From IMG/VR virus record IMGVR_UViG_2850796239_000007, positions 1 through 38,467 of that record: DNA of 38,467 nucleotides, one strand, 5' to 3'. Made by a program: the position numbers and the translations under genes. The notes beneath the pieces are model-generated. The model saw only the letters and a program-made list of their open reading frames with translations. It had not been told where the DNA came from and did no database searches. Within the stretch, counting starts at the first letter, position 1. Every line of letters starts with the position of its first letter. Below are positions 3,086 to 38,467 of this stretch, piece after piece. The DNA comes from a virus. Its lineage: Duplodnaviria; Heunggongvirae; Uroviricota; Caudoviricetes.

Positions 3086-3904
3086 ATGTGTCAGGTATTT
3101 GGTGTATCCAGGAGCGGTTATTACAACTGGGTACAGCATGAACCCTCAGACAGAAAACAAAGTGATGAGCGGCTAAAACTGGAGATTAAGGTGGCACATA
3201 TCCGCACTCGCGAAACATATGGAACCCGGCGGCTCCAGACGGAGCTGGCAGAGAATGGCATCATCGTTGGTCGTGACCGACTGGCACGTCTTCGTAAGGA
3301 GCTAAGGCTACGCTGTAAGCAGAAACGCAAGTTCAGAGCGACTACGAACCCGAACCACAATCTGCCAGTTGCGCCAAATCTGCTGAACCAGACGTTCGCT
3401 CCTACAGCACCAAATCAGGTCTGGGTGGCGGACCTGACGTATGTTGCCACACAGGAGGGATGGTTGTACCTCGCTGGCATCAAAGATGTTTATACGTGCG
3501 AAATTGTCGGCTACGCCATGGGAGAGCGCATGACAAAAGAGCTGACAGGTAAAGCCCTGTTTATGGCGCTCAGGAGCCAGCGCCCACCTGCCGGGCTAAT
3601 CCACCACTCTGATCGAGGTTCACAGTACTGCGCATACGATTACCGGGTCATACAGGAGCAGTTTGGTCTGAAAACATCAATGTCGCGTAAAGGTAACTGT
3701 TACGACAACGCTCCGATGGAAAGCTTCTGGGGAACGCTGAAAAATGAGAGCCTGAGCCACTATCGTTTTAATAACCGGGATGAAGCCATCTCAGTAATAC
3801 GGGAATACATTGAGATTTTCTACAATCGTCAGCGTCGTCACTCTCGTCTGGGGAATATCTCCCCGGCAGCCTTCAGGGAAAAATATCATCAGATGGCTGC
3901 TTAA
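3086..3904 (+). CDS. IS600 OrfB (DDE transposase catalytic part)
   Basis: 272 aa; -1 frame relative to OrfA. Confidence 0.9.
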   Translation: MCQVFGVSRSGYYNWVQHEPSDRKQSDERLKLEIKVAHIRTRETYGTRRLQTELAENGIIVGRDRLARLRKELRLRCKQKRKFRATTNPNHNLPVAPNLLNQTFAPTAPNQVWVADLTYVATQEGWLYLAGIKDVYTCEIVGYAMGERMTKELTGKALFMALRSQRPPAGLIHHSDRGSQYCAYDYRVIQEQFGLKTSMSRKGNCYDNAPMESFWGTLKNESLSHYRFNNRDEAISVIREYIEIFYNRQRRHSRLGNISPAAFREKYHQMAA

Positions 3905-3947
3905 AAAAAGAACAAATGGTAGTGTCCGCTATTGCCAGTACACCTCA

Positions 3948-6012: not shown

Positions 6013-6102
6013 ATGAATATGCCAACGTATCTCGCCAGAGTAGAACTATATAATGCTGAGCCAGAGGATTACGAAGGGCTTCATAAATATATGCTCTCAC
6101 TA
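6013..6102 (+). pseudogene. 5' part of small gene interrupted by IS5-family element
   Basis: joins in frame with 7021..7170 when IS and one TA copy are removed (80-aa ORF). Confidence 0.45.
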
Positions 6103-6162
6103 GGCTGTGTCCCTTAATCATCTGAGCTATAGTAACTGTCTGTTTACACAACATATTGAACT

Positions 6163-6612
6163 ATGGCTCGCTACGACCTTCCCGATGAGGCATGGACCAT
6201 CATCAAGCCCCTGTTACCTCCTGAACCCGCCACACCACGGGCCGGACGCCCATGGGCTGAGCACCGTAAAATCATCAATGGCATGTTCTGGGTGTTATGT
6301 TCCGGTGCACCATGGCGCGATTTACCCGAACGATATGGGTCATGGAAAACTGTTTATAACCGCTTTAACCGATGGTCAAAGTCAGGCGTGATTAATATTA
6401 TTTTCAACAGGTTGCTTTCGCTACTTGATGCAAACGGCTTTATTGACTGGTCTGCCACCGCGCTGGATGGCAGTAATATCCGGGCGCTGAAATGTGCCGC
6501 CGGTGCTCAAAAAAACATCCCGATATCGACGGAGATAATGGGCTGGGTCGCTCTCGCGGCGGTTTTGGCACCAAAATCCATCTGGCAACAGACGGAAGTG
6601 GCCTCCCGTTAA
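6163..6612 (+). CDS. IS5-family transposase OrfA
   Basis: 149 aa, MARYDLPDEAWTIIKPLLPP...; contains A AAA AAC slippery heptamer at about 6511..6517. Confidence 0.8.
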   Translation: MARYDLPDEAWTIIKPLLPPEPATPRAGRPWAEHRKIINGMFWVLCSGAPWRDLPERYGSWKTVYNRFNRWSKSGVINIIFNRLLSLLDANGFIDWSATALDGSNIRALKCAAGAQKNIPISTEIMGWVALAAVLAPKSIWQQTEVASR

Positions 6613-7007
6613 ATATCGTGCTAAGCCCCGGACAAGCTCATGAAAGCCAGTTCGCGCAACGACTTCTGGACGGGATTGGCGTTCAGCGTCAGAACGGCAG
6701 CATGAAACGCCGTGGACATGCGGTACTGGCTGATAAAGCGTATTCAGGGCGCGCATTGCGCAACGAGCTGAAAAATAACGGTATAAAGGCAGTAATCCCC
6801 CGAAAGTCAAATGAGAAAATGGCATCGGATGGACGTGCACAGCTTGATCGTGATGCGTACCGCAATCGTAATGTCGTTGAACGGTGCTTTGGGCGGCTGA
6901 AAGAATATCGCCGCATCGCCACGCGTTACGACAAAACGGCGAGAAATTACCTGGCGATGGTGAAACTGGGCTGCATCCGACTCTTTTATCAACGCTTACG
7001 TAATTAA
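6492..7007 (+). CDS. IS5-family transposase OrfB (DDE domain), -1 frame
   Basis: 171 aa in -1 frame overlapping OrfA. Confidence 0.8.
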   Translation: MCRRCSKKHPDIDGDNGLGRSRGGFGTKIHLATDGSGLPLNIVLSPGQAHESQFAQRLLDGIGVQRQNGSMKRRGHAVLADKAYSGRALRNELKNNGIKAVIPRKSNEKMASDGRAQLDRDAYRNRNVVERCFGRLKEYRRIATRYDKTARNYLAMVKLGCIRLFYQRLRN

Positions 7008-7020
7008 GGGACACAGCCTA

Positions 7021-7170
7021 GCATCCAGTAATCAGGTTAGCGAATTAACAATGTGGGTTAAACGACTGGTCAGTCAACTGAAAAAAGCTAAGCCTGACTG
7101 CAAATTACCGGAGAAGGCGATGGATTACCTGAAGCGAAATGGACTGATAAGCGTGGAGGATGTTTTACGA
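7021..7170 (+). pseudogene. 3' part of small gene interrupted by IS5-family copy 1
   Basis: in-frame continuation of 6013..6102. Confidence 0.45.
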
Positions 7171-7735: not shown

Positions 7736-7897
7736 ATATCGTTTGCACAGTCACATTCGCGATTTATGGCGGGCTGTGTGGGGGAGCCGAAAGGCTCGCC
7801 GGTTTCCGTACCCGGTTACGCCAACCCTGCACAGTTCGCCACCAGTTCGATTGGCGTCGTCGGTGGCGATAATTTCCAAATGTACGGAGTTATCGTT
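7736..7897 (+). promoter_or_regulatory. structured leader of ORF6N gene 1
   Basis: GNRA hairpin GAGCC-GAAA-GGCTC 7784..7797; ACGCCAAC site 7818..7825; hairpin TCGCCACC/GGTGGCGA 7846..7869. Confidence 0.5.
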
Positions 7898-8446
7898 ATG
7901 ACCACTCAAATCTCTGTTGAAACTCTCTCCCCGATCGCCCATAACCAGATACCTGTTATTACCACTGAACTTTTGGCGCAGTTGTACGGCACAGAAGCGA
8001 TTCGCATTCAGCAAAATCACGCCAGAAACGCTGAACGTTTTATTGAAGGTAAGCATTTTTATAAGTTAGTGGGCGATGAGCTTAGAGGTATGAAGCACAG
8101 ACTATCTTTAAGCGAGTCTGTGAAAATTGCCCGTAACGTTCGCTCCCTCATTCTCTGGACAGAACGCGGAGCAGCACGTCACGCCAAAATGCTCGAAACC
8201 GATCAGGCGTGGGAAGTATTCGAAAAATTGGAAGACTGCTACTTCAACCAGTACGAGAAAGATCGGGCTACGGGGAAAATGAACATCGATATTCACCTGG
8301 CGATCCGTGATGATAAAACTGCCTTCATCCGAAGTTATGCGCCTGGTCAGCTGGTGACGGTTGAAGAAGCCCTGATGTTGCTTAAATCGCGCGGATGGCT
8401 GGTAATGCCGCGAGATGAACTTGCCGGAAAATTAATGGAGCTTTAA
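7898..8446 (+). CDS. antirepressor-family protein, ORF6N-type N-terminal domain
   Basis: 182 aa from ATG 7898 (MTTQISVETL); paralog of 12010..12567; C-terminal motif shared with Rha protein. Confidence 0.6.
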   Translation: MTTQISVETLSPIAHNQIPVITTELLAQLYGTEAIRIQQNHARNAERFIEGKHFYKLVGDELRGMKHRLSLSESVKIARNVRSLILWTERGAARHAKMLETDQAWEVFEKLEDCYFNQYEKDRATGKMNIDIHLAIRDDKTAFIRSYAPGQLVTVEEALMLLKSRGWLVMPRDELAGKLMEL

Positions 8447-8486: not shown

Positions 8487-8675
8487 AGAACATTACCACC
8501 GGGGATAAAATGATTTGCGGTGAAAGGGAAGTTAAGTAGAATTGCTGCGGGTGCTTGAGGCTATCTGTCTCAGGCATGAACACCAAAAGGCAGATGAGAA
8601 GCCCCAGTTAACATTACGCGTCCTGCAAGACGCTTAACATTAATCTGAGGCCAATTTCATGCTAGGCTGTGTCCC

Positions 8676-26280: not shown

Positions 26281-27309
26281 ATGAGCGCATTTACTCCTGC
26301 GACTACTATTGTGTCGCCGTCAATGGTGCTGCCGGAAATGATCGTGCAACAGAGCATGGCTTCCGGGGCGTTTGAAGTCCTGGCCGGTGGTGCTCCAGCG
26401 GTAAAAATCAGTTCCAGTGATTTGATGGTCTATCAGAAATATCTGCGCATGACCTCGCAGGCGCAGGTCAGCCAGTCTCTGCCGGGTCAGTTACCGTCTT
26501 CCAGTATCTCTGGCGGCTATGACGGAATGATGACTTACCGAATTTCTTCCCGCTCGCAATACAGCTATCTCGATACTGATGCAGCAGATCGCTGGGGCTA
26601 TTCTCTGATTGAAGGCCTGCGCCTGGCTAACCGTCAGGGACACGCTCAAATGTTGCGTAATATGCTGCTGTATGGCGTGAATGCAGCTAATAACGAGGGG
26701 ATCACCAACTCACCGAACGCAGTGACGCTGAATCTGGGCAACGACAGCAAAGGTAACGATTCGTACACCACCTGGGATTCCGGCGAGATGGCTAAATTTA
26801 TGCTTGGCCTGATTGCTGACCAGAAAACCCGCATGTTGCTGCTGGGGCAGCCATTAACGACTGTTATTCTGAGCCCACAGCGATTCATGAAGGCGCTGGA
26901 GTGGACAGGAATTGTTGAGCTGACCAGTTACCAGCGTCCTGGTGGTGGTACCGGAACGGTGGGAACGATGGTTAAAGACGTCGCCGATAAGGCGACAGGC
27001 GACGACATCATGTTCTGCTAGGACGACACGCTGATCGGTAAAGGCGCTGGTGGTAATGACCTGATCATCGTTACGAACCCGACGATTGAGGTTCCGGAAG
27101 CGCGTCACACCATTAACACCAATATTTTCTCCACGCTGGTACCTAACCAGCAGGCCGTCAACGTGATGTTCTGTGATATGGCAGCGCCGACGGAAATCCC
27201 GTCCCCTATGCCGGATGGCGGCCTGACCACGTTGTATACCATGCGCGCGACGCCGGGCTGGAACTTCCGCCCTGAGGGGATCACCCTGTTGTCTGCCAAA
27301 TACGCATAA
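26281..27309 (+). pseudogene. major capsid protein candidate with in-frame amber codon
   Basis: ORF 26281..27018 continues in the same frame after TAG at 27019..27021 to TAA at 27307..27309 (342 codons total). Confidence 0.5.
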
Positions 27310-27365
27310 ACGTTCAATCTGATAACGCGGGGAGCTAAATGCTCCCTTTTTTGTGGGAAAAATTT

Positions 27366-27836
27366 ATGAAGCTCTACATCGCTAACTGCTCACGTCAGCC
27401 GCACACGTTCAACTACAAACTCCCCGAAAAAACGCAGTCGTTCGGTGTGACAATTCCGTCCGGACGTCAGCATATGATCGAAAATCAGTCCGATATTATC
27501 GACCACATCATCCGACAGCATGAGCCTTACGGATTCCAGCGTTGTGACAAGGTGGACAAGAATTTTTCCGGTATCTGCTATTCCATCGATAAACCTGTGA
27601 GCGTCGGTCGCATTGAGGATTGCGCGGAGCAGAAAACGGAAAATCTGGAATCCCTGTCAGAAGAAATTCTTGCAGCCAGCGCCGTATCGCTGAATAACGC
27701 AGTGGATCAGGCAGTGATTCAAAGTGGCGAAAAACCTCAACCGGGTGGTATTGAAATGGAAATCACCGGGGAAGCGATTAACACTGAACAGGAAAATCCG
27801 CCCAGCACAAAGCGAAATATTAAGGTTAAAAAATAA
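27366..27836 (+). CDS. hypothetical head/neck protein
   Basis: 156 aa from ATG 27366. Confidence 0.45.
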   Translation: MKLYIANCSRQPHTFNYKLPEKTQSFGVTIPSGRQHMIENQSDIIDHIIRQHEPYGFQRCDKVDKNFSGICYSIDKPVSVGRIEDCAEQKTENLESLSEEILAASAVSLNNAVDQAVIQSGEKPQPGGIEMEITGEAINTEQENPPSTKRNIKVKK

Positions 27837-27961
27837 TGACCTTGCGTCCGTCACTGGAGGGATTTATTCGCTTTGTTCGTGACGACATGAAAGTATCGGT
27901 TCACGCTATTGCTGACGATGATCCGACGCTGGAATGTTGCTTTCAGTCTGCTATGGAGCTA
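27836..27961 (+). pseudogene. 5' part of structural gene interrupted by IS5-family copy 3
   Basis: joins in frame with 28879..29193 to give a 146-codon ORF. Confidence 0.5.
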
Positions 27962-28021
27962 GGCTGTGTCCCTTAATCATCTGAGCTATAGTAACTGTCT
28001 GTTTACACAACATATTGAACT

Positions 28022-28471
28022 ATGGCTCGCTACGACCTTCCCGATGAGGCATGGACCATCATCAAGCCCCTGTTACCTCCTGAACCCGCCACACCACGGG
28101 CCGGACGCCCATGGGCTGAGCACCGTAAAATCATCAATGGCATGTTCTGGGTGTTATGTTCCGGTGCACCATGGCGCGATTTACCCGAACGATATGGGTC
28201 ATGGAAAACTGTTTATAACCGCTTTAACCGATGGTCAAAGTCAGGCGTGATTAATATTATTTTCAACAGGTTGCTTTCGCTACTTGATGCAAACGGCTTT
28301 ATTGACTGGTCTGCCACCGCGCTGGATGGCAGTAATATCCGGGCGCTGAAATGTGCCGCCGGTGCTCAAAAAAACATCCCGATATCGACGGAGATAATGG
28401 GCTGGGTCGCTCTCGCGGCGGTTTTGGCACCAAAATCCATCTGGCAACAGACGGAAGTGGCCTCCCGTTAA
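28022..28471 (+). CDS. IS5-family transposase OrfA (copy 3)
   Basis: identical 149-aa product. Confidence 0.8.
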   Translation: MARYDLPDEAWTIIKPLLPPEPATPRAGRPWAEHRKIINGMFWVLCSGAPWRDLPERYGSWKTVYNRFNRWSKSGVINIIFNRLLSLLDANGFIDWSATALDGSNIRALKCAAGAQKNIPISTEIMGWVALAAVLAPKSIWQQTEVASR

Positions 28472-28758
28472 ATATCGTGCTAAGCCCCGGACAAGCTCAT
28501 GAAAGCCAGTTCGCGCAACGACTTCTGGACGGGATTGGCGTTCAGCGTCAGAACGGCAGCATGAAACGCCGTGGACATGCGGTACTGGCTGATAAAGCGT
28601 ATTCAGGGCGCGCATTGCGCAACGAGCTGAAAAATAACGGTATAAAGGCAGTAATCCCCGAAAGTCAAATGAGAAAATGGCATCGGATGGACGTGCACAG
28701 CTTGATCGTGATGCGTACCGCAATCGTAATGTCGTTGAACGGTGCTTTGGGCGGCTGA
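28351..28758 (+). pseudogene. IS5-family transposase OrfB, frameshifted in copy 3
   Basis: CCCCC to CCCC at about 28654 changes reading frame. Confidence 0.6.
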
Positions 28759-28878
28759 AAGAATATCGCCGCATCGCCACGCGTTACGACAAAACGGCGA
28801 GAAATTACCTGGCGATGGTGAAACTGGGCTGCATCCGACTCTTTTATCAACGCTTACGTAATTAAGGGACACAGCCTA

Positions 28879-29193
28879 ATCCCTCACGATCAGGGGCTGG
28901 AGCGTTTACCCATCATCTATGTGCGAACGGTTTATAACGCTGCCGCCTCATTTCTCCTGAATTTCGCTCCCGGCTCGTGGTTTGCCGACCTGAGAAAAAA
29001 ACTCAACCTTGGGAAACTGGCTACCGGGCTTGTCAGCGCGGCAGCAGACCAGGGGACATCTGGTTCGATCACCATCAGCGACGCGCTGAGTAATCTGTCT
29101 TTGCTGGATTTGCAGATGTTACAGGATCCGTATGGACGACAGGTTGTTGCGGTGCTGATGCAGATGGGCACGGTATGGGGTTACACGCCATGA
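28879..29193 (+). pseudogene. 3' part of structural gene interrupted by IS5-family copy 3
   Basis: in-frame continuation of 27836..27961. Confidence 0.5.
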
Positions 29194-29630
29194 AACTTTG
29201 TTTTGGGGTTATCGACCAGCCGTATGACTACGGCGACGAACTGGGAAAAACCACGTTTGACGTGGCCTGTGACCTCGAGGAGCGATACGAAATTTTTACG
29301 CACTTCTGGGAAATGCATAAGGACGAGATTATCCAGGAGGCAGGTACTGAACTGGCGTACCAGTTGGTCAATCACTTCAAGTATAAGGCTCCGCTACCTG
29401 GCGAGCATTTTCTGGAAGGGACCGGGAAGATTTTCCATATATTTCTTGAAACCGAAGAAATGGCCGGAATGACGATCAACGGAAATCAGGTCCCAACCCA
29501 GGCTGCGTTACAGGGTGTTAACTCAAGGCTTAAGGACAAATATACCGGGGAGCGGCGCCCGTCATTCATAGATGGCGGCCTGTTTAAGGGCAGCTTTATA
29601 GCGTGGATAGATAACAATGCCGAGTCTTGA
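29190..29630 (+). CDS. hypothetical tail/neck protein
   Basis: ATG in ATGA overlap with upstream stop. Confidence 0.5.
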   Translation: MKLCFGVIDQPYDYGDELGKTTFDVACDLEERYEIFTHFWEMHKDEIIQEAGTELAYQLVNHFKYKAPLPGEHFLEGTGKIFHIFLETEEMAGMTINGNQVPTQAALQGVNSRLKDKYTGERRPSFIDGGLFKGSFIAWIDNNAES

Positions 29631-30561
29631 AGAATTAGCCGAACAGCACAGTTCGCAGCTCTCGTCCGTTCTTAAATCCGCAGTTGAAACCATCTCGTCA
29701 GACTAGGAAATCACGTTCAGGCTCTATGTCCGGCAGGTTCTGCCGCTGGATGGCTTTGTCTATTGGGTTAATGCGGAAATCATCAGTTGCGATGAACTGT
29801 GTCGTCTGAATATTGAGTCACCAACTCGTCTGAAAATCAAAGGCAGCCTGCATCGTCAGATTATTGCGATTCAGGACGAGTCTGTCTCGAAGGATGTGAA
29901 CAACATTATTTTCACGCCTGTTCAGCAGGTTGATGATTTTAATGTGGAAAATCCCGATGCGATCTATCTCGGTGAGTACGGCGGCGTCCAGTTCGCTTTT
30001 TCTCGAATGGAGAGCCGCTATCAGCAGTCGGGTATTTTTCATTATCGCGGCATGGCGATTTTTCCAACCATGCGTTCCCAGATTATCGACTGCGAGGAGG
30101 ATATCAGCGACGAGCAGATCATATCCAACAGCATCCCGATCTGGCTGCAAATGAAAGATGCCGCGACCGTGTATCCGTCTTACCTGGTACCGCAGAACCT
30201 TCGCCCTCCGTATATCGCGGTGGATGTTCGCAACAGTATTCCATTGCAGGTGGCTCCCGTTGTTTTCGGTGGTGAGCGATTCCAGCTCGTCCAGGATTCG
30301 GTTCGCCTGACGCTTTATGGATTCAGCAATAAAATGGCGCTGGATCTTGTCGACTCGGTGGTGAACAGGGCGCTGGAGGAGGAAAAGTTTGGTGTAACCA
30401 ATATTCCGGTGGTTCAGGACGCAAAGTCGGGACAGGTTGAAATCAACGCTCTGGCGAAGAAAAAGATTGTCGATTTTGACGTGAATTACTACCAGAGCAC
30501 CGCCCGGGAAATATCCCGGCAGTTGATTGAAAAAGTCATTTGTAAATATGAGGTTAAATAA
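29617..30561 (+). pseudogene. structural protein with in-frame amber codon at codon 30
   Basis: ATG 29617 overlapping upstream gene; TAG at 29704..29706; frame open to 30561. Confidence 0.5.
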
Positions 30562-31814
30562 TGGGGTTTAATATCGTCACGGTGAATGTGTCCCAGACCA
30601 TCGGGGCCATTCCCTCGAATTTGCAGCAGATGTCCGCTGTTCTCTCGTTTGGCTCCACGACTCATGAGCCGGGAAAGCCTGTATTACTCACCCGTAATCA
30701 GGATATTAACGATCTGGTAAGAAATCCGATTGCTGCGTTGTCGGCGGCTGCTGCAGGAAAATCTGCGGCAAACGTCACCGTTACGATGACGCTTCCGGAA
30801 GGGAGCAACATCCGACGCGAAAACAGTTCTGAGGTGAAAATTGTTGTTTCCGGGTGTTCGCCCGACGCGTGGAATGGCGAATATACTGCTACCGTCACGG
30901 ATGAAAAAACACTGACCTGGACGATTGCTGATTCTCAGCTTTCCGGTTCGCCAGTGACACTGGGGCAGTTTTCCATTGTTGGCAGTGAAAATCTGGTGAC
31001 GGCAGTAAACACGTTTTTTGCCCAGGGAAATTCAGTTGGGATTTACCTGCTGGAGCTGGGAGTACAGAAAGGTGGAGTCAGTAAGGAAATCGCTGCACTG
31101 AAAGCTTATATGGAAGATCCGCTCCTGCGTTTTTATGCGTATCTGGTGCCGCAGCCGTGGGATGGTGACGCAGAGTTTATCAGTCTGGCAAAACTCCACA
31201 CCGCCAACGAAGCGATGCAGTATTTCTTCGTGCTGACGAAAACGCCGGACGACACGAATTACGTTTCGCCTTATGCCGGTATTAAGTCGGTTATTGCAAC
31301 GGCGGATGATACGTACCCGGCGACAAACGCGGCAGCAGCCGTAATGTGGAACTATGTTTCCGCATCACCTTCAGAAATCAACAAGGTGCCGCCGATGGCA
31401 TTTCGCTATCTACAGGCGGTAAACGCCCACACGGGCAAAAATTCAATTCTGGTCACGATGACGAAGCAGAATATTAACTACGTCGACACGGGGGCTGAGG
31501 GGGGAATTTCCAACACGATTCTGGTGAAAGGCGTTACCAGTGACGGTAACGATATGACGTACTGGTATTCCGTGGACTGGGTGCAGATTAATGTCGATAT
31601 GCAGCTCGCACAGGCGGTGTTCAATACGGGCGTATCTTACGGCCTGGTCAACGGTCAGCCTGTCATCGATGCAGTGCCTTTCCGCCAGTATATCAACACT
31701 AATCCCAATGATTACGGTATCGGGCGTTATGCAGGCCTTTCGGCCTCCTATACGCCGATGCGCGGATTTGTCGAAATCATTTTTAACATCAATGTGACAA
31801 TGCAGCTTTCGTGA
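30561..31814 (+). CDS. tail sheath protein (putative)
   Basis: 417 aa immediately upstream of tube-sized gene, chaperone pair and tape measure. Confidence 0.5.
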   Translation: MGFNIVTVNVSQTIGAIPSNLQQMSAVLSFGSTTHEPGKPVLLTRNQDINDLVRNPIAALSAAAAGKSAANVTVTMTLPEGSNIRRENSSEVKIVVSGCSPDAWNGEYTATVTDEKTLTWTIADSQLSGSPVTLGQFSIVGSENLVTAVNTFFAQGNSVGIYLLELGVQKGGVSKEIAALKAYMEDPLLRFYAYLVPQPWDGDAEFISLAKLHTANEAMQYFFVLTKTPDDTNYVSPYAGIKSVIATADDTYPATNAAAAVMWNYVSASPSEINKVPPMAFRYLQAVNAHTGKNSILVTMTKQNINYVDTGAEGGISNTILVKGVTSDGNDMTYWYSVDWVQINVDMQLAQAVFNTGVSYGLVNGQPVIDAVPFRQYINTNPNDYGIGRYAGLSASYTPMRGFVEIIFNINVTMQLS

Positions 31815-31825
31815 GGGACTGAACC

Positions 31826-32269
31826 GTGCCTAATCCAATGATCCCCGTTGGCACCCTTAACCGGGTTCGCGCCAGCGTTAAATTCACCTCCCATTCTGAA
31901 CTGAATGTGTCCGCCTCATTTCTGGCAAAAGAAGGCGTCGAATTGTCCTGTCAGGGCAATATCACGGAGTTTTTACCCGCTATGACGGGAGCCGTGCAGT
32001 CGCCGCAGCCATACATGATTTTACAGGCGCGTGTTCATCTGCTGCGTAGCCAGGCGCTGGGAAAACAATTCAAGGCGCAATGGGAAAAGAATGCCACGAT
32101 CGGCGACGCAAAAGTGTATAGCGACAGCACGGTGTTCGGTGACTTCGATATCTATAACACGGCGATCACCAACGTGCAGGATATGACCTTCGCCGGGGGC
32201 GAGCCGGGTGTGGCCATCACCATTACTGGTACGTATTACATCAACTCTGAAATGTGGGATCTGGTATGA
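31826..32269 (+). CDS. tail tube protein (putative)
   Basis: 147 aa; gene order. Confidence 0.45.
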   Translation: MPNPMIPVGTLNRVRASVKFTSHSELNVSASFLAKEGVELSCQGNITEFLPAMTGAVQSPQPYMILQARVHLLRSQALGKQFKAQWEKNATIGDAKVYSDSTVFGDFDIYNTAITNVQDMTFAGGEPGVAITITGTYYINSEMWDLV

Positions 32270-32639
32270 AAATCGCGCGAAATTTAAACCTGATTATTCC
32301 TGTCCGGACAGAAAAGGGTAATGGCTGGATCCATGCCACGCCGATCAGCAAAGAGGTGTTTAAAGAGCATTTCTTCATTCTGAGTAAAACTTTTTCTGCC
32401 ATTTTTTCAGAAGGTTTTGGCGTCGTTGCGGGTCCGCGTATCGCTTTTTTGATGCTGGAGCGGATCTCGCGTGATTCTAATATCTGGGAAGGTGATAAAG
32501 GGGTCCGTAATACACTTGTTAATGAGGTCATTCGCCTGGCAAACCTTGTTTACCCAGTGGAGGGTAAAGGCTACGACACAATCCCTCTCGATATGGCGCT
32601 GGAGCGTGAAATCATTGATTTGGATGAAGTGGCGGGTGA

Positions 32640-34597
<1,958 letters not shown>

Positions 34598-37298: not shown

Positions 37299-38467
<1,169 letters not shown>

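Follow-up and report, generated by a model that had tools for sequence, protein, structure and literature searches.

How did an in-frame stop codon come to lie at the thirtieth codon of a late gene in this element, and does it serve any purpose there? The window (the whole stretch of 38,467 nt that was analysed) holds a Rac-SA53-like myovirus-type prophage of a Shigella boydii lineage. The reading preferred here, with a probability of roughly 0.8, is that the stop, a TAG at 29704, arose by a C-to-T change at a methylated Dcm site in a conserved virion gene of a decaying prophage.

The amber codon at 29704 and its gene

Read directly from the window, the ATG start codon of the gene lies at 29617-29619. 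The frame that it opens runs through MPSLEELAEQHSSQLSSVLKSAVETISSD and then meets TAG at 29704-29706, which is codon 30. The 284 codons after the amber are free of stops, the next in-frame stop being TAA at 30562-30564 (codon 315). The pentamer CTAGG (29703-29707) spans the amber. All of this had been recorded in an initial annotation of the sequence and can be seen in the window, but the accompanying statement that no ATG follows downstream was literally wrong, since there are five in-frame ATGs past the amber (codons 131, 146, 152, 179 and 240). The upstream gene ends in a TGA at 29628-29630, so that its last 14 nt overlap the gene that starts at 29617, and the downstream sheath gene begins at 30561, where the 29617 gene ends; the genes here form a tightly packed phage late operon. 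The features at the site are as follows.

29617-30564, plus strand: pseudogene, homolog of rac49 of Rac-SA53, PHROG 6359, 314 codons plus stop (from the window sequence, homologs, profile and model)
29704-29706, plus strand: derived amber codon, ancestrally CAG (Gln30), from the homolog alignment
29703-29707, plus strand: CTAGG, the mutated Dcm-site remnant of CCAGG, with T at 29704 in place of the second C, the one open to methylation

The ancestral state is clear from the relatives. Two phage records, Escherichia phage Rac-SA53 (KU052037) and one that bears the name Actinobacillus phage pPE4, match the region at 97% identity, and prophages of 85 complete E. coli genomes match it at 97-99.5%. 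Rac-SA53 and the E. coli genomes GmM062, EC11, RM11911 and W all have the gene annotated at 945 nt (314 codons), starting and stopping at the same positions. In a 161-nt alignment around the amber, the six sequences are almost identical; all five relatives read CCAGG (CAG, Gln) and the window reads CTAGG. CCAGG also occupies the position equivalent to 29703-29707 in 9/9 relatives of a wider late-region alignment. The change is thus C to T at 29704, in the ancestral context AGACCAGGA. An 81-mer of the window centred on the amber had no exact match in the 83 complete E. coli genomes with the region, where the best matches were 98.8% identical (one mismatch), and an exact-match scan of species-representative genomes with 32 nt of amber context gave no match either; the amber lineage evidently lacks a member among the species-representative genomes scanned.

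Might the 29 codons before the TAG be non-coding, with the true start downstream? Gene callers run on the mutant genomes do pick a 221-aa ORF beginning at GTG 29896 (codon 94). Against this, every intact relative is annotated from the ATG equivalent to 29617. Protein homologs number 333, in Escherichia, Salmonella, Yersinia, Cronobacter, Enterobacter, Pantoea, Serratia and Arsenophonus, and among the 120 of these that were listed, almost all are 310-317 aa long with about 100% coverage of the query. An alignment of 27 homologs, reaching down to 58% identity, shows good conservation of the first 29 residues and no variation at Gln30; 11 positions from M1 to Q30 never vary (M1, L4, E6, A8, L15, L19, A22, E24, T25, S27 and Q30). 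The PHROG 6359 profile, too, aligns to residues 1-314 of the rac49 homolog. Because the N-terminus is conserved, a start downstream of the TAG is excluded for practical purposes, and the natural start beyond 29706 that would have undone the initial annotation is not what the homologs have. As judged by comparison of sequences, then, TAG 29704-29706 is a CAG-to-TAG nonsense mutation in a conserved 314-codon gene, a premature stop at codon 30 of 314 where almost all listed homologs are full length.

A second amber lies upstream, in a gene with a likeness to capsid genes.

26281-27309, plus strand: capsid-like gene, rac45 homolog, PHROG 6671, with a weak match to the major head protein PHROG 264
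27019-27021, plus strand: first amber, CAG to TAG, codon 247 of the 342-codon capsid-like gene, ancestrally within CCAGG

Here CTAGG at 27018-27022 derives from CCAGG by a C-to-T change at 27019, the ancestral context being CTGCCAGGA. The initial annotation had named this as a first amber of the same kind, and the ancestral sequence bears out that the CCAGG-to-CTAGG change is the same as at 29704.

Could the TAG instead be a sequencing or assembly error in the window record? The record does contain likely errors: the window differs from the ATCC 9905 draft by seven indels, each of them a single base missing from a run of G5 or C5 in the window (19663, 23487, 23529, 25733, 25842, 28655 and 34276), and these under-calls are probably long-read assembly artefacts. 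However, they are homopolymer indels, not substitutions, and the amber allele was found in four separate assemblies. CP026875.1 is 100% identical to window positions 16281-37021. The exact 31-nt context of both ambers occurs in CP026875.1 and in AERN01000081.1, a contig of the ATCC 9905 draft, whose assembly (GCA_000193915.2) is listed as Shigella boydii ATCC 9905 in a published table (PMC6397287). The context of the 29704 amber is also present in QWSH01000206.1 and in the Logan assembly of ERR200285, both reached by exact-protein look-up of the 221-aa ORF from GTG 29896. The capsid amber is likewise carried by four assemblies, an exact look-up of the truncated capsid product (246 aa) leading to CP026875.1, AERN01000081.1, QWSH01000241.1 and the Logan assembly of SRR3793777. 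Since four separate assemblies carry the T, the amber is not a sequencing error, and that explanation retains a negligible probability.

The under-calls matter in their own right. The 1-bp deletions at 19663, 25733 and 25842 were considered as signs of decay and rejected, because all seven indels are G5/C5 under-calls; the frameshifts that they would cause in the terL homolog (19663) and the rac44 homolog (25733, 25842) are likely not real. The deletions at 25733 and 25842 are also absent from two further assemblies. As a practical warning, the single-base "frameshifts" of this record are probably artefacts, while the ambers are real.

What does the interrupted gene encode? PHROG 6359 is annotated as "unknown function". 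The repaired protein matched no Pfam family at E≤0.01, nor did the products of the neighbouring genes, and a PDB sequence-profile search gave no significant match (best E=0.96). An AlphaFold2 model built from a 27-sequence alignment reached pLDDT 62 and pTM 0.46. The top Foldseek matches of this model in PDB and BFVD are almost all neck, tail-terminator or tail-completion proteins, among them neck proteins of PhiTE, E217, Pam3 and Pa193, lambda gpU, T4 gp15 and the R2 pyocin collar; the matches span about 135 of 314 residues, with E values of 1e-4 to 1e-5 and target-normalised TM scores of 0.4-0.5, figures to be read in light of a poor model. The gene also sits between the head-completion genes and the sheath and tube genes, ending at the sheath ATG (30561). 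From its modelled fold and its place in the operon, the product is probably a neck or tail-terminator-like virion protein, and the initial description of a tail-region structural gene is plausible on the same grounds. It is a candidate member of the tail terminator and neck gateway proteins, such as lambda gpU, T4 gp15 and those of PhiTE and E217, for which the fold matches of the model serve as a lead and do not classify it. It shares with them the sheath-adjacent site and possibly the fold, whereas it is about twice as long (314 aa) and has none of the Pfam or PDB sequence matches.

The prophage and selection on its late genes

The element around the gene has suffered a good deal of other damage.

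18134-33796, plus strand: late region (packaging, head, neck, tail), Rac-SA53-like, colinear with relatives at 97-99.6% identity
23491-24941, minus strand: ISEc20 (IS110 family, 1.45 kb) in the DUF2213 head-morphogenesis gene, boundaries within about 2 nt
27962-28875, plus strand: ISSfl7 (IS5 family, 914 bp, TA target duplication) in the rac47 homolog
30561-31814, plus strand: tail-sheath gene, PHROG 205, with an 84-nt in-frame deletion, junction at about 31601-31624

The blocks colinear with relatives are 18134-23491, 24942-27961, 28876-31624 and 31601-33796. Colinearity stops at 33796, where the tape-measure gene is cut and IS2/IS911 material replaces the baseplate and fibre genes. Compared with all relatives, the sheath gene has gone from 445 to 417 codons, a deletion that is present in all assemblies of the lineage examined; it lies between imperfect short repeats, GCAGCTCGC... 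and GCAGGTCGC.... The IS insertions, the sheath deletion and the truncation at 33796 are all common to ATCC 9905. Leaving the 29704 amber aside, the prophage is defective on other grounds: a capsid-like gene with its own amber, a DUF2213 gene broken by ISEc20, a rac47 homolog broken by ISSfl7, and the loss of the baseplate and fibre genes. For the 29617 gene itself, translation would end after 29 residues, and an in-frame restart codon is absent for 64 codons, the first ATG, GTG or TTG in that frame after the amber being GTG 29896. A stop after 29 residues with no restart for 64 codons makes the gene a pseudogene in a defective prophage, and the amber carries no programmed function.

Several other features of the element deserve mention. 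A Rac-type integrase is encoded at 735-1811 on the minus strand. A second copy of ISEc20 lies at about 13755-15210, and there are further ISSfl7 copies at about 6100-7024 and 8659-9583. The latter two are inverted, with 925-nt arms that are 100% complementary, and they flank a 1.6-kb segment with a 226-aa ORF (7766-8446); the pair resembles a composite transposon, or else a substrate for inversion. Repeats of IS2/IS911 type (IS3 family) pair 33780-34283 with 37355-37858 and 3696-3947 with 34346-34597, lying at the truncated end and in the early region, and these repeated IS fragments could have mediated deletion of the baseplate and fibre module. Four tRNA genes with anticodons CAT, TCT, TGT and TCC are spaced 1-3 nt apart at 12775-13085. 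Between the lysis genes and the terminase, a 491-aa ORF (16511-17986) matches Pfam TrkH (PF02386) and is a potassium-uptake cargo gene, reminiscent of trkG in the Rac prophage of K-12. After the large terminase gene, the relatives' equivalent of 20691-22130 (478 aa) carries the RefSeq name "anti-CBASS protein Acb1 family protein", and the precomputed Pfam match of the same protein is Phage_portal_3; the product is probably a portal protein and the automatic name misleading. Finally, the record PP818812.1, "Actinobacillus phage vB_Apl-pPE4", has Actinobacillus pleuropneumoniae as its recorded host and is 97-98% identical to E. coli and Shigella Rac-like prophages in the late region and 97% in the integrase, so that its host assignment looks doubtful.

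Is the element still under selection? Substitutions private to the window lineage were collected from four colinear blocks (about 12.9 kb) aligned with nine relatives, a private substitution being one where the nine relatives agree and the window differs. The 26 found comprise 8 synonymous, 16 missense and 2 nonsense changes. This gives the lineage a nonsynonymous-to-synonymous ratio of 18:8, as against 245:569 for the variation among the nine relatives (odds ratio 5.2, p=1e-4); the lineage value is near the 1.7:1 expected for random GC-to-AT changes. This near-neutral ratio implies that the late genes of the lineage are evolving without purifying selection; together with the IS insertions in late genes and the truncation, it agrees with the initial view of an element no longer under selection.

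One might go further and suppose that positive selection favoured the ambers as a means of disarming a lytic prophage. Several independent inactivating lesions do gather in the late genes, and a lysogen may gain from the loss of virion production. On the other hand, the coding sequence offers 6576 possible GC-to-AT changes, 335 of them nonsense, so that about one nonsense change is expected under neutrality among 20 GC-to-AT changes, and two were seen; the near-neutral ratio likewise indicates that disabling changes are not in excess. Moreover, after the first IS insertion in a head gene, further knock-outs would add no benefit. Domestication is unnecessary because the counts match neutrality, and we consider it improbable.

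Nor does it seem that the amber is read through. If TAG were decoded as Gln, by recoding or by suppression in a supE-type host, the gene would remain functional, and a Gln-inserting suppressor would give the wild-type residue at both ambers. Both also lie in late genes, the class marked with TAG in recoded phages. However, no suppressor tRNA (anticodon CTA) was found among the four tRNAs of the window. There are two in-frame TAGs only, private to one lineage, with CAG in all relatives, and the prophage is inactivated anyway by the IS insertions and the truncation. The chance that such decoding keeps the gene alive is vanishingly small.

Mutation spectrum and Dcm targets

If the late genes drift freely, by what mutational process did the two ambers arise? 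The private substitutions are dominated by GC-to-AT transitions, which account for 20 of 26 (12 C to T, 8 G to A). Dcm targets were defined as the second C of CCWGG on either strand, and 60 conserved target bases were counted. GC-to-AT changes had struck two of these 60 (27019 and 29704) and 18 of 5875 other G/C positions, an odds ratio of 11 (Fisher p=0.017), although this rests on two events and on a hypothesis formed after seeing them. A second comparison considers stops only: 18 of the 335 possible GC-to-AT nonsense sites in the ancestral coding sequence (5.4%) are Dcm targets, so that the probability of both nonsense changes falling there is p=0.0029, again for two events and a post hoc hypothesis. 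The enrichment, with p-values of 0.003-0.017, is suggestive.

The main competitor to a Dcm origin is that methylation-independent GC-to-AT mutation struck two CAG codons, the CCAGG context being coincidental. This has a good deal to commend it. Of the 20 private GC-to-AT changes, 18 are found away from Dcm sites, so that the background is mainly one of ordinary AT-biased mutation, and CAG to TAG is the commonest route to a stop (165 of the 335 possible GC-to-AT nonsense sites). Among the nine relatives, moreover, Dcm targets show no detectable excess of polymorphism (5/68 vs 309/6281, p=0.39); this missing signal probably reflects variation shaped by selection and recombination. What counts against coincidence is that both ambers fell within the small Dcm fraction of the nonsense sites and that Dcm targets changed at about 11 times the per-site rate of other G/C. 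The initial annotation had argued that two nonsense codons share one mutational signature, and these two tests agree with it in making a uniform GC-to-AT process unlikely. Coincidence is thus a minority explanation, though by some way the strongest of the alternatives to a Dcm-site origin.

The distribution of the pentamer itself was also examined. CTAGG occurs at 10 sites in the window, counting both strands, against 39.7 expected from shuffles, a depletion that fits the usual CTAG avoidance of these genomes. Half of these sites (6100, 7017, 8662, 9579 and 27959) were created at ISSfl7 junctions, that at 27959 by joining the target CTA to the IS end GG. Two sites in the integrase gene, 1702 and 1777, were examined for an origin from CCAGG as well; phage pPE4 has both, and neither is a stop in the reading frame. 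The late region proper has no CTAGG other than at the two derived ambers.

Origin of the amber and known parallels

The target of Dcm in E. coli is the second C of CCWGG; T:G mismatches left by deamination of the methylated base are corrected by Vsr, but this very-short-patch repair is incomplete (PMC3527292). S. flexneri has dcm, and its CCWGG sites are methylated (PMC12215381). From the literature on these two species, we infer by analogy that Dcm methylation also operates in the S. boydii strain, whose window sequence does not extend to the dcm/vsr locus. The second C of the ancestral CCAGG would then have been methylated by the host Dcm methyltransferase; the 5-methylcytosine would have been deaminated to thymine, and the T:G mismatch would have escaped Vsr repair, after which replication would have fixed the C-to-T change at 29704. 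The capsid amber at 27019 would have arisen by the same route. That the ancestral sequence in the alignment of relatives is CCAGG, with C to T at the second C in both ambers, is in keeping with the methyl-C deamination first proposed for them. The amber would have persisted since the prophage, with two IS-interrupted late genes, its baseplate and fibre genes lost and a near-neutral substitution ratio, was free of purifying selection.

What follows from the finding is mainly a matter of annotation. What is called as a 221-aa ORF from GTG 29896 in these Shigella genomes is the 3' part of a pseudogene, and the prophage that contains it is defective; beyond annotation the significance is small, except that the site offers a clean natural example of the classic CCAGG-to-CTAGG amber hotspot. 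A broader idea starts from the fact that 18 of the 60 Dcm-target bases in the late region (30%) are one deamination away from TAG. Dcm sites might then be built-in weak points, and Dcm ambers a disproportionate and predictable early route by which enterobacterial prophages are inactivated. We regard this as speculative and rather unlikely. If it were true, weakened Vsr repair in the Shigella lineage could perhaps accentuate Dcm-driven ambers, and the proportion of CCWGG sites already converted could act as a clock of the time since selection was lost.

Amber hotspots in lacI that arise by change of CCAGG to CTAGG are the classic case, and such hotspots at CCAGG were reportedly described by Coulondre, Miller, Farabaugh and Gilbert in 1978. 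The window ambers resemble them in the pentamer (CCAGG), in the base affected (the second C), in the change (C to T, CAG to TAG) and in the E. coli/Shigella setting. They differ in that the window change is a fixed natural substitution in a prophage pseudogene rather than a rate scored in a reporter, and in that methylation of the site is something we infer. Rac-SA53 and the Rac-like E. coli prophages are the closest relatives of the element as a whole: their late regions are colinear with that of the window (97-99.6% identity), the gene order is like that of Rac-SA53 (terS, terL, portal, DUF2213, capsid-like, rac46-49, sheath, tube, tape measure), and the window element, like Rac-like prophages, has a Rac-type integrase and a TrkH-family cargo gene. 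Compared with Rac-SA53, on the other hand, it carries two ambers, ISEc20, ISSfl7 and the 84-nt sheath deletion and is missing the baseplate and fibre module, and its early region is a mosaic with only 80-95% identity in patches. The element also follows the pattern of IS-driven decay in Shigella, of which the many IS copies in its 38 kb (ISSfl7, ISEc20, IS2, IS911) are typical, and it shares the relaxed selection and AT-biased substitutions of Shigella genome decay. A Dcm-site amber in a decaying Shigella prophage is an already well known kind of gene decay.
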